A stretch of DNA of 64,000 nucleotides from assembly GCA_017463065.1 (NCBI GenBank), contig JAFTPX010000009.1:13256-77255 (forward strand), given 5' to 3'. Source of the stretch: Clostridia bacterium (GTDB lineage Bacteria; Bacillota; Clostridia; Oscillospirales; CAG-272). Of this stretch, positions 10,289 to 58,720 are shown in pieces. Made by a program: the position numbers and the translations under genes. Position 1 is the stretch's first letter. Each line of letters begins with the position of its first letter. A model generated the notes under the pieces. The model was not told the DNA's origin. It did no database searches and worked only from the letters and a program-made list of their open reading frames with translations.

Positions 10289-11302
10289 ATGGAACACGCT
10301 AAAATCATTCACGGCGATAGTCTCGAAGTCTTGAAAACCCTCCCCGACTGTTCGATCGATTGTTGCGTTACCTCTCCTCCTTACTACGGACTGAGAAACT
10401 ACGGGAGCGACGGGCAAATCGGTTTAGAGGAAACCCCGGAGGAGTACATACAGAAACTTGTTGAGATATTCAGAGAGGTACGACGCGTTCTTAAGGACGA
10501 CGGCACGCTATGGGTTAACATCGGCGACAGTTACGCAGGAAGCAGAAAAGGGTTGATGAAAAACGGGACTCATTCCGCAGGACCATCGAAGTCAGACAAA
10601 CACCTCGCGAAAATAACCGGACTGCAACCGTGCAAAACACCGGGGATAAAAAGAAAAGACCTCATCGGTATACCGTGGCTTCTCGCATTCGCTTTACGGC
10701 AAGACGGTTGGTATTTACGGCAGGACATTATTTGGAACAAGCCCAACGCGATGCCGGAAAGCGTCAAGGACCGTTGCACAAAGAGCCACGAATACATTTT
10801 CCTTTTTAGCAAATCGGGACGGTATTTTTTCGACCACGAGGCAATAAAAGAACCTTGCGTAGGATACGACAATAGACCGCCTGCAGGAAGCAACGGGACG
10901 TTGAAACCCAATTCTCGAAAGAGGAAAGGCAATGCAAAGTCATTCCGAGGGGGAGGCGCATATACGTGCGGCAGATCCTTCGAAAACAGCGCAAACGTCG
11001 AAAGACAGACACACGGTAACACCCCCAATGAAAAGGGAACGCGGAACAAGCGGAGCGTTTGGAGCGTAGCTACACAGGGGTACAAAGGAGCGCATTTTGC
11101 AACTTTCCCCGAAAAGCTTGTTGAGCCTTGTATATTGGCAGGATCAAAACCGGGCGGAACGATCATCGACCCGTTTTCGGGGAGTGGGACAACGGGCGCA
11201 GTCGCAATAAGAAACAGCCGCAAATACATCGGGATTGAAATAAATCCCGAATATGTAGAACTATCATCAGACAGACTCGCAAAGGAGGAGGAGAAAAAAT
11301 GA
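10289..11302 (+). CDS. DNA methyltransferase, beta-class N4-C/N6-A (SPPY type)
   Basis: Motif IV SPPY lies near the N-terminus (CCVTSPPYYGLRNY) and motif I FSGSGTTG near the C-terminus. Starts 1 nt after the upstream stop. Confidence 0.85.
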   Translation: MEHAKIIHGDSLEVLKTLPDCSIDCCVTSPPYYGLRNYGSDGQIGLEETPEEYIQKLVEIFREVRRVLKDDGTLWVNIGDSYAGSRKGLMKNGTHSAGPSKSDKHLAKITGLQPCKTPGIKRKDLIGIPWLLAFALRQDGWYLRQDIIWNKPNAMPESVKDRCTKSHEYIFLFSKSGRYFFDHEAIKEPCVGYDNRPPAGSNGTLKPNSRKRKGNAKSFRGGGAYTCGRSFENSANVERQTHGNTPNEKGTRNKRSVWSVATQGYKGAHFATFPEKLVEPCILAGSKPGGTIIDPFSGSGTTGAVAIRNSRKYIGIEINPEYVELSSDRLAKEEEKK

Positions 11303-12003
11303 AACCGATCTACGTTCCGAAAGGCAAAGCCAAAGAATACGGAGATTACGCCCTCAACATCTATACGGGCTGTCCTCACCGATGTTTTTACTGCTTTGCA
11401 CCGAATGTTTTGCGCCGGGAAAAGGAACAGTTTCACGCGGTTGTAAAACCCCGGGAGAACATCGTTGAGGAAACGAGAAAGCAGATCGAGAAAGAGGGCA
11501 TCACGGGGAAGCTCATTCACCTGTGTTTCACATGCGATCCATACCCCCTCGGCCACGACACAACGGTTACGCGAGAGATTATATCCCTGCTCAAAAGCAC
11601 CGGGAACAACGTGCAAATCCTTACCAAAGGCAATGGCCGCCGCGACTTCGATTTGCTCGGACCGGAAGATTGGTACGGCATAACCCTCGACGGCGGGCTC
11701 ACCTTCAAACATGAAGTTGCTTCTTTCCCCGTTACAAGAGCGGAGACGCTACGAGAGGCTCACGCAAGAGGGATAAAAACTTGGGTGTCGTTTGAGCCTG
11801 TTCTTAACGCAGAAACCGTGCTGAAAAACATCAAATACGTCGCAGAATTTGTAGATAAGGTGAAAATCGGCAAACTCAACTACCACCCATCGGATATTGA
11901 TTGGGCGGAATTTGGAAGGAAAGCCGAAAGCCTATGTCAGAAACTCGGACTCGACTACTACATCAAAGAGTCTCTCCGGGCGGAAATGGAGGCGGCAAAA
12001 TGA
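11299..12003 (+). CDS. Radical SAM enzyme 2 (small, SplB/COG1533-like)
   Basis: CPHRCFYC CxxxCxxC motif close to the N-terminus. ATGA overlap with the methyltransferase stop. Confidence 0.75.
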   Translation: MKPIYVPKGKAKEYGDYALNIYTGCPHRCFYCFAPNVLRREKEQFHAVVKPRENIVEETRKQIEKEGITGKLIHLCFTCDPYPLGHDTTVTREIISLLKSTGNNVQILTKGNGRRDFDLLGPEDWYGITLDGGLTFKHEVASFPVTRAETLREAHARGIKTWVSFEPVLNAETVLKNIKYVAEFVDKVKIGKLNYHPSDIDWAEFGRKAESLCQKLGLDYYIKESLRAEMEAAK

Positions 12004-19943: not shown

Positions 19944-20418
19944 GTCTTGGGAACGTCAACCCAAGGAAAGTGTGCAAGCCTACGAAGCCTTTTCCCTCTA
20001 CCTCGAATTGGGGTACAAACGCACTGTGCGAAAAGTGGCACAGGACTTGAACAAATCCCTGTCGCTCATAGGCGGATGGAGTAGCACGTGGAATTGGCAA
20101 CAAAGAAGCGCGGACTACGACGCAGAATTGAAGCGGCAGGAGTTTGAGGAAGCCAAAAAAGCGATCAAGAAAATGCAGGAGCGGCACATACAAACGGCCA
20201 TGCTCCTGCAAAAGAAAGCGTTGCAGGCCCTCGAAAAGAAAGACATCGAATCTTTCACCCCGCAAGAGATCCTACGCTTCATAACCGAGGGCGCGAAACT
20301 CGAAAAAGCGACCCGAGAGGAAGCCAACCCCGCAACGGAGAACGCCAACGGCCCGGGCAGTCTTGCCGACACGATCATAGCGGCGTATGAGAAACGGAGA
20401 GGAGGCGGCGGTGAATGA
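19918..20418 (+). CDS. terS: Terminase small subunit (putative)
   Basis: Lies directly upstream of terL with an ATGA overlap. N-terminal HTH-like YEAFSLYLELGYKRTVRKVAQDL. GGAGAGGAGG RBS. Confidence 0.65.
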   Translation: MAGRSKSIKSWERQPKESVQAYEAFSLYLELGYKRTVRKVAQDLNKSLSLIGGWSSTWNWQQRSADYDAELKRQEFEEAKKAIKKMQERHIQTAMLLQKKALQALEKKDIESFTPQEILRFITEGAKLEKATREEANPATENANGPGSLADTIIAAYEKRRGGGGE

Positions 20419-21830
20419 GTTTAAGTCAAGAAGCCATCCTCTATTACGCAGATCACCCCGTCCACTTTGTTGAGGATCTCATAGGGGCAACGCCGGATGA
20501 AAAGCAAGCGCAGATCTTGCAGAGCGTTGCGGACAACCCCATGACCTCAGTACGCTCGGGACACGGTATCGGAAAGAGCACGGTTGAGGCTTGGACGATC
20601 ATTTGGTTTATGGCGACAAGGCCGTTCCCGAAGATCGCTTGCACCGCACCGACACAGCATCAGTTGTTCGATATCCTTTGGGCGGAGATTAGCAAGTGGT
20701 TGAGAAGCGCCCCCGCCCTCGAAAAAGAGTTCGTTTGGACGAAAGAGAAGGTGTACCTCAAAGGCTACCCGGAGGAATGGTTCGCGGTAGCACGAACGGC
20801 CACAAAGCCGGACGCATTGCAGGGCTTCCACGCTGACGACATTCTATACATCATCGACGAAGCAAGCGGCGTTAAGGACAACATCTTTGAACCCGTCCTC
20901 GGTGCGCTGTCAACACCGGGCGCAAGGCTTTTGATGTGCGGAAACCCGACACAGCTTAGCGGATTCTTTTACGAGAGCCACACGAAGAACAAAGCGTCGT
21001 ACAGCGCATTCCACGTAGACGGGAGATCAAGCAAGCGCGTCTCGCAGGATTTCATCAATACGATCATCCGAATGTACGGTGAAGACAGCGACGTATTCCG
21101 TGTTCGTGTTGCAGGGGAGTTTCCAAAGGCGGAGGCGGACGTATTCATTCAGCTTTCCCTCGTGGAGAGCTCTATTATGACAGAGTTTTACCCGCGAAAG
21201 ATACCTGCGTCAATCCGCATCGGTTGCGACGTGGCACGCTTTGGCGACGATAAGACCGTAATAGGCTCGAAGGTGGACGAAAAGGTTACGCTCGAAAAGA
21301 AGCGCAACGGGCAGGACACCATGAAGACGGCGGATGACATCGTTCTCCTTTACTACGATCTGCTGAGGAAATACCCAGACTACAAAGACGATATAACCGT
21401 CTGCGTAGACGACGGCGGCGTGGGCGGCGGCGTAGTGGACCGTTTGCGTCAAATGAAGAAAAACGCGCCGGAGCGGCTTGGGCAGATGAACATCGTGCCG
21501 ATCACCTTCGGACAGCGGATCAAGCATAAGTATTACCACGACTCAACCACGTACATGATGGCAACGGTCAAGGCCTTGCTATCACCATTCGACGAAGACG
21601 GAAACCCGAAACCCGTCGAACTGATACTCCCGAACGACGACGACCTCGTAGCACAGCTTTCGGGCAGAAAGTACGGCTTGACGGACAACAGCAAGATCAA
21701 GGTCGAGAGCAAAAAAGACATGAAGGAACGCGACCTCCCCTCCCCCGACGAGGCGGACTGCGTTTTGCTTTTATGCGTCCCGATCAGACAGAAGAAAAAG
21801 AGCGGAAACGAAAAGAAGCAGGGCAGATAA
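20415..21830 (+). CDS. terL: Terminase large subunit
   Basis: Walker A SGHGIGKST and Walker B ILYIIDEASG. C-terminal nuclease-type acidic residues. 471 aa. Confidence 0.9.
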   Translation: MSLSQEAILYYADHPVHFVEDLIGATPDEKQAQILQSVADNPMTSVRSGHGIGKSTVEAWTIIWFMATRPFPKIACTAPTQHQLFDILWAEISKWLRSAPALEKEFVWTKEKVYLKGYPEEWFAVARTATKPDALQGFHADDILYIIDEASGVKDNIFEPVLGALSTPGARLLMCGNPTQLSGFFYESHTKNKASYSAFHVDGRSSKRVSQDFINTIIRMYGEDSDVFRVRVAGEFPKAEADVFIQLSLVESSIMTEFYPRKIPASIRIGCDVARFGDDKTVIGSKVDEKVTLEKKRNGQDTMKTADDIVLLYYDLLRKYPDYKDDITVCVDDGGVGGGVVDRLRQMKKNAPERLGQMNIVPITFGQRIKHKYYHDSTTYMMATVKALLSPFDEDGNPKPVELILPNDDDLVAQLSGRKYGLTDNSKIKVESKKDMKERDLPSPDEADCVLLLCVPIRQKKKSGNEKKQGR

Positions 21831-25947: not shown

Positions 25948-26871
25948 ATGCCTACCAACAGACAGATTGTGAAAGACACGATCACTACCGCAACCGTAAC
26001 CAACGGCTTGCTGAAACCCGAACAGTCTCGCCGCTTCTTGCAACAGACTTTCGACGCTACCCCTTTGCAGGGCCTCATTCGCCATGAGCTCCGCACTTCC
26101 ACCACCGGCGAGATCGACAAGATCGGTATCGCTTCCCGTATTCTGCGTAAGAAGACCGAAAACGCAGACGACGGCTACCGTGCAAAGCCCAACTACGGCG
26201 CGGTTGAGTACGCTTGTACTCCCGTTCGCTTGCCTTGGGAAATCACTGAGGAAACCCTGCGTCAGAACATCGAGGGTCAGAGCCACGAAGAAACCATCGC
26301 CAACCTCATGACGAGACAGGTTGGTATTGACACCGAAGACCTGTACCTCAACGGCGACGTTGCCACCGCAGACACCGATCCCGATTATGCGTTCCTCTCC
26401 ATCAACGACGGTTGGATCAAGCAGATCAAGAACGGCGGTCACATCTTCGACGCGTTGGCCAAGAACGCCGGCGCAATGACCCTCGACACCTTCTACGGCG
26501 CGTTGAAGGCCATCCCCAACAAGTACAACAACGGCAGACTCCGTTGGCTCATGTCCCCCGCAAGAGCGCAGGAGTGGGAACTGTACTTGATGAACAAGGT
26601 CATCGACGCAGGCGGCGCTGTTCCCGACAACGTCTACACCTCCCCCGCCCGCATTCCTACCGTCGAAGTGCCTAACATGCCCGACGACTGCATCCTGCTC
26701 ACCGACCCCAAGAACCTCATCGCGGTCAACTCTTATAACATGGTTATCAGAAAGACCACCGAGGGCAAAGAGGCGGTCATGCAGGACAAGCGTTTCTACG
26801 TCGTGCATTTCGACTTCGACGCGATCATCGAAGAGCTCGACGCAACCGCGGCAATTACCGGCCTTGCATAA
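25948..26871 (+). CDS. Major capsid protein
   Basis: 307 aa, after the protease/scaffold gene. Strong AGGAGGA RBS and a hairpin directly downstream. Confidence 0.8.
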   Translation: MPTNRQIVKDTITTATVTNGLLKPEQSRRFLQQTFDATPLQGLIRHELRTSTTGEIDKIGIASRILRKKTENADDGYRAKPNYGAVEYACTPVRLPWEITEETLRQNIEGQSHEETIANLMTRQVGIDTEDLYLNGDVATADTDPDYAFLSINDGWIKQIKNGGHIFDALAKNAGAMTLDTFYGALKAIPNKYNNGRLRWLMSPARAQEWELYLMNKVIDAGGAVPDNVYTSPARIPTVEVPNMPDDCILLTDPKNLIAVNSYNMVIRKTTEGKEAVMQDKRFYVVHFDFDAIIEELDATAAITGLA

Positions 26872-26930: not shown

Positions 26931-27635
26931 TTGTATAAGATCCTAATTTGGAAAGACCATTATACCAACATGGAGAACACCTATGTTGCAAGGCAAAACA
27001 ACAACGGGACGATCACCCTCACCCCTGCGGGTCAAGTCATTCAGCAAGGCACGAGCATGAGCGCGGAGAACTTCAACAACATGGAGTGCGGAATCCTCGA
27101 TGCCGATCTTGCGAACCGGCTCCTCCTTTTACTCACGAGGAACAACGCCACCGAAATCGCCAAGATCAAAACGTCCACGGGCCAAGCAGTCGGCGTTGTA
27201 ACGTACATGAACGGGGCGCAAACCGGGTCAATCGAAGCGGCAGAACCCCTTATGATCGAAGCCGGTAACGGCATCGGCGCGACGGTCCAAAACGGCAGAG
27301 TTATCCTTGGCGTTGATGTAACCACCGCCCCCGAGTCGATGAAAGGCGGTTCGAATTTCATTGCTGACACCGTCACTTTGGAAACCGCCAAATGGACGCA
27401 AACAACCGCAGACGGCTTGATGTACGAAATGCCTTTCGAGGGCGTTTTGGCAGACCCCACGAAGTGCCTTGTTTTTTGCGCCGTCGTTCCCAATGATGCC
27501 GCAATGGAGGCAGAGTGGGCGCGGTGCGATATCCGTTGTGTTACGCAAGGGGACGGCTACATTAGGTTCAGATCACGGAGCGGAGAGACACCCACCATCG
27601 ACATCAACGTTTCCGTAGCCGTATTTACGAAGTAG
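26931..27635 (+). CDS. Fibre-like protein; its N-terminal domain is paralogous to the product of 45283..45552
   Basis: TTG start after AGGAGGTG. In YKILIWKDH...QQGTSMSAENFNNMECGILDADLANRLLLL, 44 of 67 residues are identical to the start of the tail-fibre-adjacent protein. Confidence 0.5.
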   Translation: MYKILIWKDHYTNMENTYVARQNNNGTITLTPAGQVIQQGTSMSAENFNNMECGILDADLANRLLLLLTRNNATEIAKIKTSTGQAVGVVTYMNGAQTGSIEAAEPLMIEAGNGIGATVQNGRVILGVDVTTAPESMKGGSNFIADTVTLETAKWTQTTADGLMYEMPFEGVLADPTKCLVFCAVVPNDAAMEAEWARCDIRCVTQGDGYIRFRSRSGETPTIDINVSVAVFTK

Positions 27636-27647
27636 GAGGGAAAGCGT

Positions 27648-28007
27648 ATGCCAATCATCAATATCAACCCTACGAAGAAAGATGATTCCACCGCCGCCAC
27701 CGTTTACGTGGTCGGGAATCCCGTAGAATTCGTCCTGTCGAAGGACCTTTGGAACGGGACGATCTACACGATCACGACAACCGAATACGGCGAGGTGGGC
27801 GCTCTGCAACTCGGAATCCCACCTACATCAAGCATGGCCAACGCCAACCGCCTCATTCGGTGCGCTTTGACGATCCCGCAGATCACAAACACGAGGATCG
27901 ACACGGACGGCGACGACGTAAAAGAGACCAACCAAGCTACGATCACCATTTCCGCAGTAACAGCCCCCGACGAAGACGTGACCGTGGCGATTTGGGGGCT
28001 GATCTAA
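27648..28007 (+). CDS. Hypothetical structural-module protein
   Basis: AGGAGGG RBS. 119 aa. No motif recognised. Confidence 0.5.
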   Translation: MPIININPTKKDDSTAATVYVVGNPVEFVLSKDLWNGTIYTITTTEYGEVGALQLGIPPTSSMANANRLIRCALTIPQITNTRIDTDGDDVKETNQATITISAVTAPDEDVTVAIWGLI

Positions 28008-28684
28008 TGAATCAGTTGACCCACCTTGCAGTCATCGCGGACGGGAACGGCCGTTGGGCGGAAAAGCGGGGGCTTACCCGTTCAGAGGGCCACGAACACG
28101 GTCTGCATAAGATCGACGATCTGCTTCATTGGTGCGTGGATCTCGGCATCCCTTTTCTTTCCGTTTACGTTTTCTCTACCGAGAATTGGAACAGACCGAA
28201 AGAGGAGGTTGACGCCTTGGGAGAGCTTGCGGACAAATATTTCGACCGTCACCGGGAATTCAAGGAAAGCAATGTGCGTGTACTCATTTCCGGGTGCGCG
28301 GACAATTTGAAGCAAACAAGCCTCGATAAAATCGCACATCTGCAAGAGGAAACAAAGGACTGCACCGGGCTGACGTTGAACCTCTGCGCCAACTACGGAG
28401 GGCGCAGGGAGATTGTGGACGCCATCGCCAAAGGCGCAAGGACGGAGGAGGAGATCACAGCCGCTCTCTATCACCGATTACCGCCGCCGGACCTCATTCT
28501 ACGGACGGGCGGGCATCAACGGCTCTCCAACTTTCTCTTGTGGCAATCAGCTTATGCGGAGCTCCACTTCACCCACACGCTTTTCCCGGATCTTTCCTTC
28601 GGGGAAGTCAAACACATCAAAAGCGCATTCGAGCGCGAAACCCGAAAATTTGGAGGTGTGATCATTGACAAGCGGACAGTATAG
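28007..28684 (+). CDS. uppS: Undecaprenyl-diphosphate synthase homologue (cis-prenyltransferase), 225 aa
   Basis: All family hallmarks are present: VIADGNGRWA, FSTENWNRP, ANYGGRREI, LRTGGHQRLSNFLLWQSAYAELHF and RKFGG. The ATG shares its A with the upstream TAA. Confidence 0.9.
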   Translation: MNQLTHLAVIADGNGRWAEKRGLTRSEGHEHGLHKIDDLLHWCVDLGIPFLSVYVFSTENWNRPKEEVDALGELADKYFDRHREFKESNVRVLISGCADNLKQTSLDKIAHLQEETKDCTGLTLNLCANYGGRREIVDAIAKGARTEEEITAALYHRLPPPDLILRTGGHQRLSNFLLWQSAYAELHFTHTLFPDLSFGEVKHIKSAFERETRKFGGVIIDKRTV

Positions 28685-29564
28685 TTATTTGCTTCTCAAA
28701 CATATGCAAAAGTACGTTTCTTGTTCCGAGCCGTGGGTACGCGTATATCTCTACAACTTCTACGGGAGCATTTTCAACGACCCCTCCGTGGTGGTTGACG
28801 AGGCAAGCTATTTGCGGTTCAAAGAGCTCATGGACGCAGAAATGGAATATTGCGCTCAAAAGGGATTGCACAGCATGGAAGACGTTTACTACGACGAAAA
28901 CTTCGGCGAGTCCTACACCCTTTTGGAAGATGCATTTGGGACGCTTGGGATCACTATGGAGATCACGAAAAACTCGGACGGCCACCCGCAAACGCTCATA
29001 TTCACCTTGCCTTCCGGGGAGCAAAAGATTCTCGAGTGTTACAACATGTGCTTTAACGGCTGTACGCCGTATGTGCGGGCGCGATTGGGCGTGACAGACA
29101 CCTACCTCGAACAGATCCGCTCCTATTACCAACTCGAAGAAATCGAGAGGTGCGACTTGGAGGAAGACGGTTGCAACGTGGCGGGGAACGGCACCTGGTG
29201 GACGCATGACGAAGCGACAGGAACGCTTGAAATCACAGGCGAAGGATCTCTCGTAGAATCCATCGTGTGGGGCTACGTCGGGATCGAATTGGAAACGGTC
29301 TCGACGATGATCGTCGGCGCCGGGGTGAAGGTTTTCGACGACTACTCTCTGAGCTTTGAAAATGTACCTACGGTGAACATCGTCACGCTTCACGGAGAAG
29401 CTGACGAACTGACGCTTGGCGAGACGGTTTTCGGATCCTTCAAATCAGAAAGAACCGTCATTCTCTACACGGATAACACGGCTTTGATGGATTACTTGGC
29501 GGCAAACTACGCGGGGACAATCGACTACTTCGAGATCCACAGCCTTGCGGAATGGGAGGGATAA
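28665..29564 (+). CDS. BspA-type leucine-rich-repeat-like protein
   Basis: The C-terminal GTWWTHDEATGTLEITGEGSL...MIVGAGVKVFDDYSLSFENV...LGETVFGSF resembles LRR_5/BspA repeats. TTG start after GGAGGTG. Overlaps the uppS end by 20 nt. Confidence 0.5.
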   Translation: MTSGQYSYLLLKHMQKYVSCSEPWVRVYLYNFYGSIFNDPSVVVDEASYLRFKELMDAEMEYCAQKGLHSMEDVYYDENFGESYTLLEDAFGTLGITMEITKNSDGHPQTLIFTLPSGEQKILECYNMCFNGCTPYVRARLGVTDTYLEQIRSYYQLEEIERCDLEEDGCNVAGNGTWWTHDEATGTLEITGEGSLVESIVWGYVGIELETVSTMIVGAGVKVFDDYSLSFENVPTVNIVTLHGEADELTLGETVFGSFKSERTVILYTDNTALMDYLAANYAGTIDYFEIHSLAEWEG

Positions 29565-29565
29565 C

Positions 29566-30132
29566 ATGAAGGTATACGAGATCGGCTTCTCGCAGGTAGC
29601 CGACGCAATGAAAGAGATCACGCAGACCGGCGGGGAGGGGCTGATCGTTGAGATCGCCGCAGACCCTTGGCTTGCGACGGGAAGGATCGACGGCACCTAC
29701 TCGGAAGAGGCGCGGCAAGATCTTGGCATTCCCCTTTTCCACGCAAAGCACTACGGAGGCACCTGCGTCGTATTTCCCGGAGACCTATCTCTTTGCGAAA
29801 TGCGCTTGACACAGAGCGACTTCGGCAAACGTGCAATCCACGCCGTGAAAGAGTTTTTGAAAAGCCTCGGGCTTCACGTTGCGCTTGACGGAAACGACCT
29901 TATGCTTTACTCCCCGGAAGAAAACGAAAAATTCAAAGTTGCGTCCTACGGTTCGGGGAGCTTCGGCGGCGGGCATTACCAAACGGTTGTGCACGTTTCC
30001 ATTGGCATGGACGAAGAACTCGTAAAGCGCCTATGCACAAAGAATCAAAAAAAGAAACCGAGAGGGCTTGACCGTTACGGCGTGACCGCGCAGGCGGTTT
30101 ATGAAGTTATAAAACCCCTTATAACAGTTTGA
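29566..30132 (+). CDS. Lipoate/biotin-protein-ligase-fold (LplA-like) protein, divergent
   Basis: HAKHYGGTCVVFPGDLSL aligns with the LplA RRSSGGGAVFHDLGN. DGNDLML....KFKVASYGS aligns with GRNDLVV...RKVSGSA, so the lysine is retained. HYQTVVHVSIGMD aligns with HHGTLLLNADL. Confidence 0.5.
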   Translation: MKVYEIGFSQVADAMKEITQTGGEGLIVEIAADPWLATGRIDGTYSEEARQDLGIPLFHAKHYGGTCVVFPGDLSLCEMRLTQSDFGKRAIHAVKEFLKSLGLHVALDGNDLMLYSPEENEKFKVASYGSGSFGGGHYQTVVHVSIGMDEELVKRLCTKNQKKKPRGLDRYGVTAQAVYEVIKPLITV

Positions 30133-30143
30133 GAGGCTAAAAA

Positions 30144-30449
30144 ATGAAACTTCGGCTTATTTTACTCTACGTGTTCAACATCATCGACACGATCACCACG
30201 CTGTACTTGACGCAGATCATCGGCTTGGAGGAGGCGAACCCCGTGTGCCGTTTCCTTTTGTCCGTTGGTCCCGTTCTTTTCGTGGTAGTAAAGCTCGCAG
30301 TCGTCACCTTCTGTTGTTGGGATCTTTGGCGGCTCCGGGACGAAAAGCTCGCCCAAATTGCAACGTGGATCCCCTTCACCGCATACGGGCTTTTGGTGGC
30401 GTACCACGGCTTTATTTTTTACATTTTATTTCGTTTGAATTTGATTTAA
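30144..30449 (+). CDS. Small integral membrane protein (3-4 TM, DUF5658-like EANP motif)
   Basis: Hydrophobic throughout. LEEANPVCRF motif. Confidence 0.55.
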   Translation: MKLRLILLYVFNIIDTITTLYLTQIIGLEEANPVCRFLLSVGPVLFVVVKLAVVTFCCWDLWRLRDEKLAQIATWIPFTAYGLLVAYHGFIFYILFRLNLI

Positions 30450-30465
30450 GAAAGAAGGTGAGAAA

Positions 30466-31911
30466 ATGGAAATTCAATATTTGAGCATTAGAGACGCGGC
30501 AGGCGAAATCGTCTTCACAAAGATCCCCATTAGGCAACCCGGACAGGAGGGCGAATTTGTAAAAGTAAGAGACGCCTACGGGGATATCGTCGAAATCGAA
30601 GCGTGTATGTGCGGGCCCCACCTGCACACGATCAGCGACATCAACGCTTTGCAAGAAACGCTCGACAAAAAGCCAGATGCTTACCACGCCGTTCTGCAAC
30701 CCTTTGATTGGGTATTCGACGGCACTCTCGAAGGGAAAGAAACTATTCCTATCGGTGGAACTCCGGAATTAATGGCCTACCTTGTGAAAATCACAGATCT
30801 CGTCCCGACGATAGAGGAGTTTAAGGCAGGAACTGCCACAATAAGACCTTTAGGCACCGATGAAACTATGACTTTCGCCATTTCCGAGAATGTGATTAAC
30901 GTTATTCATGGAGGGTACTATTTTGGAATTGTTCATGTCGACCAAATCAACTATATTGCGCTCGTCACGAACAATACAAACGCCGGGTACCTTTCAGGCA
31001 GTTCTCCCATTGATGGGAAGGATGTTTCTACGGGCGTATGGGCTACTGTTTTTTGTCTCAAAGACGACAGCGAGAAAATAATCTTCGGGCCTAAAGAGAT
31101 ATATTTCCCTTCCATTGCAAAAGCCCCGGCAAAGAAACTCGACCCCGCTCTTGTGGACGCCGAGTGGATGCCTCGGAGGGAAAAGGGCGCCGGCCCGCTG
31201 ACCGTCTCCTTCGACGGGGATTTGAGCAGGCATCCGCACACCTGGATAAGTGGATTTGATCAAATCGTTTGGATTAAACTTTCCGATCTTATACCTACGA
31301 ATGAGCAAATTAACGCAGGAAAGGGAACCTATACCACTATCGACGGTTCTGTCCACGAATTTACAGATGCCGGACGTTTTAACGGTTGGGAGAATGAGGC
31401 CTTGGGCTCCCCTGGGTTATATTTTGCCTTTGACGCCTACCATGAAGAGCTATCCCCTTGGAAATTCACCTTCCAAATACCCGACGTAGATGGGGCAGGC
31501 ACGCCCGTGAAAATTCCGGAAGAGTTCCTGCCCGACTACGTTGCGGATCTTCCGGCTGAGGTTGAAATGGCCAAAGACGAGGCATACCAAAACAAGATCG
31601 TTCGTTTTTTATTTAATCCAACCAATAATACCGGTTCATACTATTTACAAAATTCATTCTCCTCAACTATTGTTACCGCCGCCGAATTGGAAGCACTGGG
31701 TTATGTAAGAAAAAACGACACCATGGACTACCGCATGGTTAGAGGCCCCTTAATTATATCCGTCGGTGGGGGGCCGGAGTTCCTCACCGCTGTTGCGGTT
31801 AAACAAATGGATGACCTCGCGGGCTCCCCGTTCTGCGTAACTGTTATCAACAGCGAGGGGGAACCGATCAAGCTCTACACCGCCGAATACACACTCGAAG
31901 CAACTGAATAA
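30466..31911 (+). CDS. Fibre-like structural protein
   Basis: HLHTISDINALQETLDKK matches the H-x-H..D(I/V)xGLQxxLxxK motif common in phage fibres. 481 aa. Confidence 0.45.
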   Translation: MEIQYLSIRDAAGEIVFTKIPIRQPGQEGEFVKVRDAYGDIVEIEACMCGPHLHTISDINALQETLDKKPDAYHAVLQPFDWVFDGTLEGKETIPIGGTPELMAYLVKITDLVPTIEEFKAGTATIRPLGTDETMTFAISENVINVIHGGYYFGIVHVDQINYIALVTNNTNAGYLSGSSPIDGKDVSTGVWATVFCLKDDSEKIIFGPKEIYFPSIAKAPAKKLDPALVDAEWMPRREKGAGPLTVSFDGDLSRHPHTWISGFDQIVWIKLSDLIPTNEQINAGKGTYTTIDGSVHEFTDAGRFNGWENEALGSPGLYFAFDAYHEELSPWKFTFQIPDVDGAGTPVKIPEEFLPDYVADLPAEVEMAKDEAYQNKIVRFLFNPTNNTGSYYLQNSFSSTIVTAAELEALGYVRKNDTMDYRMVRGPLIISVGGGPEFLTAVAVKQMDDLAGSPFCVTVINSEGEPIKLYTAEYTLEATE

Positions 31912-45282: not shown

Positions 45283-45552
45283 GTGTACAACATCCTCATT
45301 TGGAAGGACCATTGCGTAGAGCCGGGCAACACTTACATTGCCAAGAACAACGCAGATGGAACTGTTACCCTTACCCCCACGGGGAAGATCTTGCAACAGG
45401 GAACGAACCAAAGCGCGACCAATTTCAACAATATGGAGGCAGGCATCCTCGACGCACATCTCGCAAATTCCCTGCTCCTCCTTGCGTTAAGAGATCTTTC
45501 CTCCCGGCTTGAAGCCGCAGAGAAAGCAATCGCAACGCTCCAAAGCACATAG
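45283..45552 (+). CDS. Short fibre-anchor-like protein (paralogue of the N-terminus of 26931..27635) with a coiled-coil tail
   Basis: GTG start after AAGGGGGAA. YNILIWKDH...QQGTNQSATNFNNMEAGILDAHLANSLLLL. Confidence 0.5.
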   Translation: MYNILIWKDHCVEPGNTYIAKNNADGTVTLTPTGKILQQGTNQSATNFNNMEAGILDAHLANSLLLLALRDLSSRLEAAEKAIATLQST

Positions 45553-45574
45553 TAAACGATAAAGGAGAATGAAC

Positions 45575-46636
45575 ATGAGCAAATTTAACCTTACGAGCCT
45601 TGCGCTCGAATCTGCATTTTCCCCCAACACCCTCATTTACGACGATCTAGGGCTTCCGTCGGTTATGGTGTACGTCCCCAAATTCAAGATCAGCGACGTA
45701 ATCCCCGGCGGGAGCGACAGCACTCACCCGGCGTTCATCGTTGACGGTGTGGAAAGAGACGGCATCTATATTTCAAAGTATCAGAACGTAGTCCTCAACG
45801 GCAGAGCTTATTCCATTCCCTGCGAAGATCCTGCCGTTAGCGTAAGTTTCACGGCGGCGGTTGATTATTGCGCGGCAAAAGGCGAGGGGTGGCACATCAT
45901 GACCGCCGCAGAATGGGCGGCAATCGCTCTTTGGTGCAAAAAGAACGGGTTCCTGCCCTACGGAAACAACAACTACGGCAAGGACACAAGGGAAACCGAT
46001 TACAAGGCGATCCCGACAGCAAAAGATGCCGACGGCAGGACGCTTCGCGTAGCAACAGGCACAGGACCTCTTACGTGGAGCCACAACAATATGCTCGACG
46101 GCATTTACGACCTCAACGGTAACGTATGGGAGTGGAACGGCGGTATGAGGCTTGTTTACGGCGAACTCCAGATCCTCGAAAACAACAACGCCGCCAACAG
46201 CGATGCCTCGCAGGCGGCCTCTTCCGCGCAATGGAAGGCAATCGACGGCACCACAGGAGAGCTTATCACCCCGGATGGAAACGGCAAGACGAAGAACAGC
46301 CTCAAACTCGACCTTTTGAACTCCGTTTGGACGTGGATCACCGGGACTGTCACAGCAACCGCGACGTTCACTTCGAGATTTAAGGAAGTCACCACCGACG
46401 GAACCGTCAGCGACGCGGCAAAGGCGATCCTGCAGGCTCTCGCCATGCTCCCCCATGACACCGGCGATTACGGAGACGACGACTTCTACATCGACCCCAC
46501 GAAAGCGGACTTTATCCTCTATTCCGGAGGGGCACAAAGCACCGGCGTTAGCGCCGGAGTTTTCCGCAAGGCTTTTTCCGCATTGAGAGCTTTTGCGGCA
46601 TCGACAGTCGGTTTCCGCGCCGCTTACTACGAGTAA
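45575..46636 (+). CDS. Tail fibre / receptor-binding protein with an FGE-sulfatase (SUMF1, C-type-lectin-fold) domain
   Basis: GEGWHIMTAAEWAAIALWC and LNGNVWEWNGG match the FGE-domain signatures GWRLPTEAEWE and GNVWEW. ATG 45575 preferred because of its spacing to AAAGGAG. Confidence 0.65.
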   Translation: MSKFNLTSLALESAFSPNTLIYDDLGLPSVMVYVPKFKISDVIPGGSDSTHPAFIVDGVERDGIYISKYQNVVLNGRAYSIPCEDPAVSVSFTAAVDYCAAKGEGWHIMTAAEWAAIALWCKKNGFLPYGNNNYGKDTRETDYKAIPTAKDADGRTLRVATGTGPLTWSHNNMLDGIYDLNGNVWEWNGGMRLVYGELQILENNNAANSDASQAASSAQWKAIDGTTGELITPDGNGKTKNSLKLDLLNSVWTWITGTVTATATFTSRFKEVTTDGTVSDAAKAILQALAMLPHDTGDYGDDDFYIDPTKADFILYSGGAQSTGVSAGVFRKAFSALRAFAASTVGFRAAYYE

Positions 46637-57535: not shown

Positions 57536-58720
57536 ATGAAAAAGAAGCTCTTGATCGCCCTGATCGCCCTTGTGTTAGCCGTGGTCCTTATCGTTGCGGC
57601 GGCGGTGCTCCTGCTTCCGCAGTATCATTATTCCCGCGCGCTTTCGCTGATGGAAGAAAAGAACTACAACGAAGCATACGTACATTTGAAAAAATGCGAG
57701 AATTTCAAGGACAGCAAAGAGCTCCTTGAGAACTTCGTGACCATTTACGACGCCTACACCGTTACCAACGGCGCCGGGGAGATTCAATCCAAAAAGGAAT
57801 ACACCTACGACGAAAACGATAACCTGATCCTTGAGCAAAGTTTCGGAAAAGACGGTGCCGCCGGATCCAAAATCGAATATGCGTATGACGAAAACGGCAA
57901 CGAGATCCTTTTGATCATCTACGATAAAAACGGGAATATTACCACCAAATCCGAACGGGAATACGACGAATACGGAAATATGATCCTGTCAAAAGGCTTT
58001 AAAACCATCGATCATGTTGTCACCAATTCCACCTCCAAACACGAATACGAATACGATTCAAACGGCAACGTGCTTCAAGAAACCACTTATGATGAAAAGG
58101 ATCGGTTCAAGAGCCGCTACAGATGCGAGTACGACGAGAATAACAACAAAACCCTTGTGATCTACTACGACGAAGAGGGAGAAGCTGAGTCCCGCACCGT
58201 ATACGAATATGACGAAAACGGCAACGTGACCTTTGAAATCCACTATAACAAAAACGATGCAGTGACCACCAGCCACGAATGGGAATACGACGCAAAAGGA
58301 AATCTCACCCTTCGCGTGAGCTATGACAAAAACGGAAAGATCACGAGCAAAACCGAATACACGTACACCGAAGACGGCTGGGAGTCCTTCTCCATCACTT
58401 ACGCCGATGCCCCCCAGTATGACGATCTTACGCTCGAACAAAAGTACGACAAAAACGGCAACGAGATCCTTTCGATCAGCCGTAACGACGGCAACCTTAT
58501 GTTCCACGGCGAGTACGAATACGACGAACACGGCAACATGACCCTTGAAACCGGCTATGATGAAAACGGTAACGTTGGATATCAGTTTAAATTCGAGTAC
58601 GAATACGACGAATACGGTAACATGACCCTTAAGATCGAATACGACAACGACGGCAACGTGAAGGCCAAAACCGAATTCACCAACCCGAGATTTACTTACA
58701 GGCCCCAAGAAGACGAATAA
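57536..58720 (+). CDS. Membrane-anchored YD-repeat (RHS-type repeat) protein
   Basis: An N-terminal TM helix, then about 15 copies of the YxYDxxGN motif. Confidence 0.75.
   Translation: MKKKLLIALIALVLAVVLIVAAAVLLLPQYHYSRALSLMEEKNYNEAYVHLKKCENFKDSKELLENFVTIYDAYTVTNGAGEIQSKKEYTYDENDNLILEQSFGKDGAAGSKIEYAYDENGNEILLIIYDKNGNITTKSEREYDEYGNMILSKGFKTIDHVVTNSTSKHEYEYDSNGNVLQETTYDEKDRFKSRYRCEYDENNNKTLVIYYDEEGEAESRTVYEYDENGNVTFEIHYNKNDAVTTSHEWEYDAKGNLTLRVSYDKNGKITSKTEYTYTEDGWESFSITYADAPQYDDLTLEQKYDKNGNEILSISRNDGNLMFHGEYEYDEHGNMTLETGYDENGNVGYQFKFEYEYDEYGNMTLKIEYDNDGNVKAKTEFTNPRFTYRPQEDE

Follow-up and report, generated by a model that had tools for sequence, protein, structure and literature searches.

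Lipoate-protein ligase A (LplA), LipB, and BirA are, to our knowledge, known only as enzymes that attach cofactors in central metabolism. For the Thermoplasma LplA, accessory function is supplied by LplB. Residue roles have been described for LplA and LipB, including the catalytic dyad of Mycobacterium tuberculosis LipB, K142/C176, with a spacing of 34 residues (PMC9307952), and LipL, through C150, is a case of an LplA-like sequence working by way of an acyl-cysteine (bioRxiv 10.1101/419234). We analyzed a 64,000-nucleotide stretch of a Clostridia bacterium genome (GCA_017463065.1, contig JAFTPX010000009.1, positions 13,256 to 77,255; hereafter the window), where a prophage encodes a 188-aa homolog of these enzymes that we call mini-LplA (Table 1). 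We tentatively favor the reading, plausible to us if short of probable, that mini-LplA is an active acyl-transfer enzyme working with a leucine-rich-repeat (LRR) fiber or adhesin protein, and that in this prophage it is carried in a mobile cassette.

Fold and Homology of Mini-LplA

An initial annotation, made from the sequence alone, had likened the 188-aa product to the catalytic domain of LplA. By itself the protein matched no Pfam or PHROGs family and gave no direct sequence match in the PDB. An AlphaFold2 model built with 13 homologs (37-70% identity) had a pLDDT of 91.7 and a pTM of 0.88, and a Foldseek search of the PDB with this model placed LplA and LipB structures at the top (E 1.6e-11, TMq 0.72-0.75), recovering the BPL_LplA_LipB fold and bearing out the likeness. 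VIA-align, which is independent of Foldseek, aligned 180 of the 188 residues with LplA 4tvw (Z 17.8) and as many with LipB 2qht (Z 16.4); biotin ligases (Z 9-12) and class II tRNA synthetases (Z 7-8) followed, and the archaeal bipartite LplA (3r07, 2ars) was among the best structural matches. Searched against the PDB, a family profile of 125 members matched LplA chains (E 9.7e-11), 89 of those members matched PF21948 (LplA-B_cat; best E 6.2e-13), and hhalign of the family against an alignment of 29 LplAs gave a probability of 98.4% and E 6.8e-15. In an NCBIfam scan, LplA models were matched by 54 and 33 of the 125 members, whereas the LipB-specific models (TIGR00214/PRK14342) gave a single weak match (E 0.0023, 1/125). 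The 188-aa protein is a true member of the BPL_LplA_LipB superfamily, with a likeness far beyond chance. It ends at residue 188, corresponding approximately to LplA residue 209, and lacks the C-terminal accessory domain, as the initial annotation had stated; Pfam scans of the neighboring genes detected neither a Lip_prot_lig_C-like partner nor a separate LplB.

An exhaustive profile search identified at least 373 clusters of the family at 50% identity (E <= 0.001), with a median length of 186 aa, nearly all between 170 and 205 aa, and members almost all viral. We detected no match by tblastn of GenBank phages with mini-LplA and no PHROGs family for it, and a profile search with the alignment of close homologs returned nothing from the viral, genome, and metagenome collections; a search with a further alignment recovered just one group already known. 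In 400 genomes of the host's family no member turned up, and about 800 further genomes of the host's order and class yielded it in only one other (G380, of the same order), the class-level genome matches being ordinary LplAs of 330 aa. A relative in BFVD, A0A8S5QKT7 (187 aa, 33% identity, TM 0.86), is annotated "Lipoate-protein ligase A [Siphoviridae sp.]," and the nearest ESM Atlas clusters are viral proteins of 184-188 aa, only part of which are recognized by PF21948. No paper on phage members of the family was found. The mini-LplA family is a large phage-specific offshoot of LplA, and it is probably active.

Active-Site Residues Kept and Lost

Conservation was counted in the 125-member alignment, in which mean column identity is 23%. 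D111 and K124 are invariant (125/125), followed by N110 (123), K159 and L168 (122 each), C157 (121), P165 (120), K163 (118), G65 (116), D73 and S145 (112 each), G64 (109), and H143 (104). In profile alignments K124 pairs with LplA K133 and LipB K135, and N110-D111-L112 pairs with LplA N121-D122-L123; the lysine noted as retained at the outset is confirmed. G64-G65-T66 pairs with LplA G74-G75-A76. The initial reading of GGT in place of GGG was thus one residue off, and the real loss is the arginine pair that precedes the glycines. Of the lipoate loop RRxxGGG, the GG is kept (G64, G65), while the two arginine positions, occupied by R69 and R70 in 29 of 29 LplAs compared, are H59 and A60 and vary across the family. 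The register of the proposed HxxxxxxxxxD block differs between HMMER and hhalign; in the hhalign register the position of LplA H149 is Y/Q/E/F, and the conserved H143 is a few positions off, depending on the alignment.

Losses were scored against the 29 LplAs at residues invariant or nearly invariant among them. Mini-LplA has lost R69, R70, H79, D80, R120, H149, G150, S179, S182, R183, V184, and N186, the loss of H149 being register-dependent; the H79 position is V/I/N/C/S in the family, and the adenylate-binding loop K-G..S..SRV.N carries a deletion of about 10 residues spanning S179-N186. What the family has gained is a nearly invariant cysteine and a basic loop, C-T-K-P-x-x-K-x-P-x-G-L. The initial annotation had suggested an adenylating ligase-like enzyme, with a catalytically dead, structural fold as the alternative, and would have counted poor conservation of the key lysine and nucleotide-binding residues as a refutation; the lysine proved invariant and the adenylate-binding residues proved lost. 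With neither the RR pair, H79/D80, and H149 nor the adenylate-binding loop and accessory domain left, a canonical lipoate-adenylating ligase is unlikely, and a catalytically dead fold is unlikely because D111 and K124 are 100% invariant in a family of such low identity.

A Candidate Cys/Lys Dyad

In the AlphaFold2 model, the H143-bearing strand is followed by a helix that ends at C157. The spacing from lysine to cysteine is 32-34 residues in 113 of the 121 members that have the cysteine; in Escherichia coli LipB, K135 and C169 are 34 residues apart, positions that we checked in the sequence. Alignment with LipB by hhalign paired K124 with K135 and C157 with C169, but with E 8.6e-4, a probability of 23%, and a shallow enterobacterial LipB profile, the E. 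coli LipB homolog search having given near-identical enterobacterial sequences only. Thioester acyl transfer is favored because the Lys-Cys spacing matches that of the LipB dyad and because LipL provides a precedent, and the sequence suggests that mini-LplA could act in this way through a putative C157/K124 dyad.

LRR and Fiber-Type Partners Upstream of Mini-LplA

Sixteen independent contexts of the gene were compared, comprising the window, the bacterial genome G380, and IMG/VR contigs L037-L068, with the neighbors clustered and Pfam-scanned. Recurrent neighbors across these contexts were BspA-type LRR_5 proteins, collagen-like fiber proteins, and Listeria-Bacteroides-repeat proteins. An LRR_5 protein is encoded immediately upstream of mini-LplA in G380, L048, L049, L056, L057, L066, and L068, with PF13306 (LRR_5) matched by the upstream genes of G380, L048, L049, and L066; in L058, L061, and L063, LRR_5 proteins are found within 5 kb. 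The 299-aa protein encoded directly upstream in the window had no Pfam match, but the model of its residues 169-296 has the BspA-type LRR structure 4h09 as its best match (Z 7.5, Foldseek E 0.011), and LRRs also make up almost all of the structural matches ranked below it for this C-terminal half. The longest contigs bearing relatives of the 299-aa protein match in size those bearing close LplA-like homologs. One 605-aa protein, P0102, consists of an LRR-type N-terminal part fused to a mini-LplA domain (residues 442-595), the N-terminal part sharing 39% identity over 97 residues with the product of the L056 upstream gene; the fusion may be a frameshift or gene-calling artifact. An LRR or fiber-type protein encoded directly upstream is the general partner of mini-LplA across the family, and this most general of its partners had been missed in the initial annotation.

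The conserved ...SEWEG end of the 299-aa family prompted the idea that the C-terminal carboxylate of the LRR partner is adenylated. We rejected it because the C termini of distant upstream partners are unrelated and the fused form has no free C terminus at that point.

In G380 the LplA-like gene is directly followed by open reading frames (ORFs) of 65 and 248 aa (L005:10473-10670 and 11158-11904), whose products begin with a common domain of some 60 residues (MAYAIT...YI.AVLD...) that looks like a repeated anchor module.

The UppS and DUF5658 Cassette

The initial annotation had proposed that, next to a prenyl-chain synthase, the ligase-like enzyme and the small membrane protein could form a lipid- or acyl-attachment system, to be checked by co-occurrence with uppS in other phages. 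An IMG/VR search with the window UppS, an undecaprenyl-diphosphate synthase, returned 15 loci, and in 10 of them (L077-L084, L086, L087) a protein with the 119-aa domain, UppS, a relative of the 299-aa protein, mini-LplA, and DUF5658 are encoded in that order. Identities to the window proteins are 67-69% for UppS, 30-34% for the 299-aa relative, and 30-32% for mini-LplA, and the mini-LplAs of these loci match the family hidden Markov model at E 1e-34 to 1e-42. The ten phages have a P22-like portal and show no capsid, portal, or sheath similarity to the window; in L086 a phi29-type head-fiber-like gene and an amidase follow the cassette. Because the same order recurs on an unrelated phage backbone, one branch of the family has its four-gene core, UppS-LRR-like-mini-LplA-DUF5658, as a mobile cassette. 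This recurrence lends real support to the idea that the ligase-like protein, the membrane protein, and the prenyl synthase belong together. UppS is absent from 27 of 27 LplA-side viral records carrying mini-LplA, 16 of them at least 90% complete, so UppS is a lineage-specific addition to the neighborhood. In the family tree the UppS-linked mini-LplAs fall in one clade of 26 among 155 tips, with weak support (0.6).

Among the other UppS loci, L085 (6001-7610, on a 214-kb viral contig) encodes UppS and a 299-aa relative, with no mini-LplA or DUF5658 within 6 kb on each side, and no mini-LplA was found in the 6-kb flanks fetched on each side of the more distant loci. In L090 (5956-7491) and L091 (5941-7374), on large viral contigs of which one is GVMAG-labeled, UppS relatives (37-38% identity) lie inside proteins of 477-511 aa, the UppS domain being fused to another part.

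The gene after mini-LplA, described initially as an EANP-motif membrane protein 12 nt downstream, encodes a DUF5658 protein that does contain E-x-N-P along with three hydrophobic segments; it starts 11 nt after the mini-LplA stop. It matches PF18902 with 57.5 bits (cut-off 25.2; E 2.4e-15), and partner copies match at E 2.2e-15 (L038) and 1.5e-13 (L078). DUF5658 is found directly downstream of the LplA-like gene in three lineages: the window, L037-L045, and L077-L084/L086/L087. The L037-L045 lineage lacks UppS and is the only LplA-side IMG/VR group with DUF5658 in this position. Conserved in all three lineages are N..D...TL in the first membrane segment, E-x-N-P, a lysine, and YG....H, a pattern that fits a holin less well than it does a small membrane enzyme or carrier. 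We found no paper mentioning the DUF5658 family.

Prophage Setting

The window is a PBSX/XkdF-type myovirus prophage with its genes on the + strand, encoding portal (PF04860), a Mu-F-like protein, XkdF protease, tail sheath, tail tube, and baseplate J proteins. In the head-gene region, between the capsid gene and the connector genes, is an accessory block (26931-31911) that encodes the 234-aa, 119-aa, UppS, 299-aa, mini-LplA, DUF5658, and 481-aa proteins (Table 1). In related cassettes the 119-aa domain is found (38-42% identity) within a protein of 249-397 aa encoded ahead of UppS, and the 481-aa protein has no relatives in the other loci compared. The ribosome-binding site of mini-LplA, GGGAGGG, falls within the 3' end of the upstream 299-aa gene, and these two genes are predicted to be translationally coupled; the block is accordingly expressed as part of the late operon. 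Promoter-like and terminator-like sites are no more common in the block than in shuffled sequence.

Table 1. Features of the accessory block, its flanking capsid gene, and mini-LplA residues
Feature	Coordinates or residues	Strand	Remarks
P2-family capsid protein	25948-26871		Prophage head region
234-aa protein, first gene of accessory block	26931..27635	+	N-terminal 78 residues duplicate an 89-aa ORF
119-aa protein	27648..28007	+	Domain recurs before UppS in related cassettes
UppS, phage-lineage undecaprenyl-diphosphate synthase (cis-prenyltransferase)	28007..28684	+	PF01255, E 8.8e-69
299-aa partner protein	28665..29564	+	Helical N-terminal half; C-terminal half of short BspA-type LRR fold (model)
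Mini-LplA, 188 aa, single LplA/LipB-type catalytic domain	29566..30132	+	
Mini-LplA key residues	G64-G65, D73, N110-D111, K124, H143, S145, C157, K159, K163, P165, L168		
DUF5658 small polytopic membrane protein, 101 aa	30144..30449	+	PF18902
481-aa fiber-like protein after cassette	30466..31911	+	PF12789 "Phage tail repeat like," E 5.9e-5, below cut-off

Elsewhere in the prophage, the first 78 residues of the 26931-27635 product duplicate an 89-aa ORF (45283-45552) located just before the tail-fiber gene (jackhmmer E 2.8e-43), which points to a common anchoring domain that would serve a further set of fibers. A protein of the tail-fiber region (45569-46636) contains an FGE-sulfatase/C-type-lectin-like domain (PF03781, E 2.6e-9), a fold that diversity-generating retroelements typically have in their variable proteins. 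RHS repeats and a sialidase-like carbohydrate-binding domain occur together in a 394-aa protein encoded at the far end of the prophage region (57536-58720). For the gene in the terminase position (20415-21830), no terminase family was matched, and the AAA_30/AAA_19 matches obtained were weak (E about 2e-4).

Weighing the Alternatives

From the observed homology, the retained active-site residues, the lost ligase features, and the conserved neighborhoods we infer a mechanism, donor, and target. Mini-LplA, co-transcribed and translationally coupled with its LRR-type fiber or adhesin partner, would take an activated acyl group, probably from a thioester of the acyl-acyl carrier protein or acyl-coenzyme A type, onto C157 and would pass it to an amine by Cys/Lys catalysis in the style of LipB, LipM, and LipL. 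Its probable role would be the acylation or maturation of a fiber or adhesin component of the virion, with a membrane-associated step in those lineages that have DUF5658 and UppS. A more specific version, in which mini-LplA, DUF5658, and a phage-made polyprenyl carrier together form a lipidation system at the membrane that would link a fatty-acyl or other lipid-like group covalently to a lysine of a head-fiber or LRR adhesin protein, strikes us as decidedly unlikely; we know of no lipid-modified virion protein in tailed phages. Several points weigh against the favored reading. The LipB alignment is statistically weak, as detailed above, and other alignments put C157 one to three residues off the LipB cysteine position; the family is LplA-like rather than LipB-like in sequence, so the cysteine would be a convergent gain, and an N-D motif such as mini-LplA keeps is characteristic of the adenylating branch. 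No lysine is invariant in the LRR partner family, which may therefore not be the acceptor, and a fiber-region neighborhood can also reflect a common insertion site for accessory genes.

This last point belongs to a rather unlikely alternative, in which UppS, mini-LplA, and DUF5658 form a lysogenic-conversion or exclusion module acting on the host envelope, for instance by acylating or aminoacylating a polyprenyl-linked or teichoic-acid-type intermediate at the membrane, and the LRR and fiber genes mark no more than the usual insertion site for accessory genes. UppS makes the envelope carrier lipid, DUF5658 keeps polar residues (N, D, E, K, H) within or next to its membrane segments, which would be expected of an enzyme or carrier in the membrane, the four genes are shared as a set by phages of unrelated backbone, and in several loci mini-LplA sits at the junction of fiber and lysis genes, where accessory genes collect. 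Most mini-LplA lineages, however, lack UppS and DUF5658 yet keep the LRR or fiber partner, a fusion of mini-LplA to an LRR-type protein exists, and the absence of above-chance promoter or terminator signals in the block gives no indication of separate expression in the lysogen. The same fusion, at the C terminus of the LRR-type protein, can be turned to another reading, that the LplA fold serves without catalysis as a chaperone, docking piece, or ligand- or receptor-binding domain for the LRR adhesin. The gene lies directly downstream of fiber or adhesin genes, the usual place of fiber chaperones, and many of the substrate-contact residues invariant in LplA are lost; but the residues that are invariant in the family are exactly the catalytic lysine and N-D motif of the superfamily, and a scaffold would have no need of a 97% conserved cysteine and two conserved lysines, and we hold this reading, too, to be improbable.

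Two further readings keep the chemistry closer to that of LplA. An adenylating ligase, as the initial annotation had it, that activates a carboxylic acid with ATP and has its accessory function supplied by a separate partner protein, in the manner of Thermoplasma LplB, would fit the retained N-D...K motifs of LplA and BirA, the match of the family to LplA rather than LipB models, and the place of the archaeal bipartite LplA among the best structural matches. It is nevertheless very doubtful, with RR, H79/D80, R120, H149, and the whole S..SRV.N segment missing and no Lip_prot_lig_C-like partner in the Pfam scans of neighbors. Barely credible is a role as an ordinary auxiliary metabolic gene, its product lipoylating or octanoylating a host 2-oxoacid dehydrogenase or GcvH during infection, as the public annotation of A0A8S5QKT7 and the fold and lysine common to true ligases might be taken to imply. 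In the host genome, which is 78% complete, we detected no GcvH, no LplA or LipB, and no other PF21948 match; its one carrier domain is biotinyl (EAMKM motif), adjoining a decarboxylase beta subunit. Mini-LplA has lost the lipoate-binding residues, and its family, essentially viral and linked to fiber genes, was not found in the 400 host-family genomes and in only one other genome, G380, among the roughly 800 more. We hold a role in host lipoylation to be improbable.

Mini-LplA represents a large branch of LplA, with hundreds of clusters almost only in uncultured phages, that is tied to host-recognition proteins of LRR, collagen-like, and repeat types. If active, it would mark an unknown post-translational step in the building or arming of phage particles or in the remodeling of the host envelope, and it would give first functional handles on DUF5658 and the phage-lineage UppS genes.

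Comparison with Known Systems

In size and fold mini-LplA resembles DUF366/PH0223 (PDB 2ddz; Z 11.9), a BPL-fold protein of about 190 aa. Weak DUF366 matches occur in 15 of the 125 family members (best E 0.0038) and none in the window protein or its genome; DUF366 is a different family, the matches of mini-LplA to LplA being far stronger. The biotin/lipoate A/B ligase family structure 2p5i is also a structural match (Z 13.7).

LipM and LipL of Bacillus subtilis, an octanoyltransferase and an amidotransferase derived from LplA, are the precedent for an LplA-like sequence that does without adenylation and uses a cysteine thioester. They are proteins of about 280 aa that modify GcvH and E2 lipoyl domains, neither of which the host seems to have, and their cysteine comes before the lysine, not after it. 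The order and spacing of mini-LplA match those of LipB (E. coli; M. tuberculosis 1w66; Thermus thermophilus 2qht), an octanoyl-ACP:protein N-octanoyltransferase that has this fold in a single domain of about 200 aa and needs neither ATP nor an accessory domain. Common to the two is a conserved cysteine 32-34 residues past the lysine, in the loop beyond the corresponding helix. Mini-LplA does not keep the RGG-loop R, the PGQ, or H78/H150 of LipB, and the equivalence of the two cysteines rests on a weak alignment.

LplA (E. coli 1x2g/3a7a/4tvw; Listeria LplA1 8cri; PF21948, TIGR00545) has the same catalytic-domain fold over all 188 residues and is the closest family by sequence profile, and both have the essential lysine, N-D-L, and the glycine pair of the lipoate loop. 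Mini-LplA differs from it in being half the size, in being viral, and in being linked to fiber and LRR genes rather than to lipoyl-dependent enzymes.

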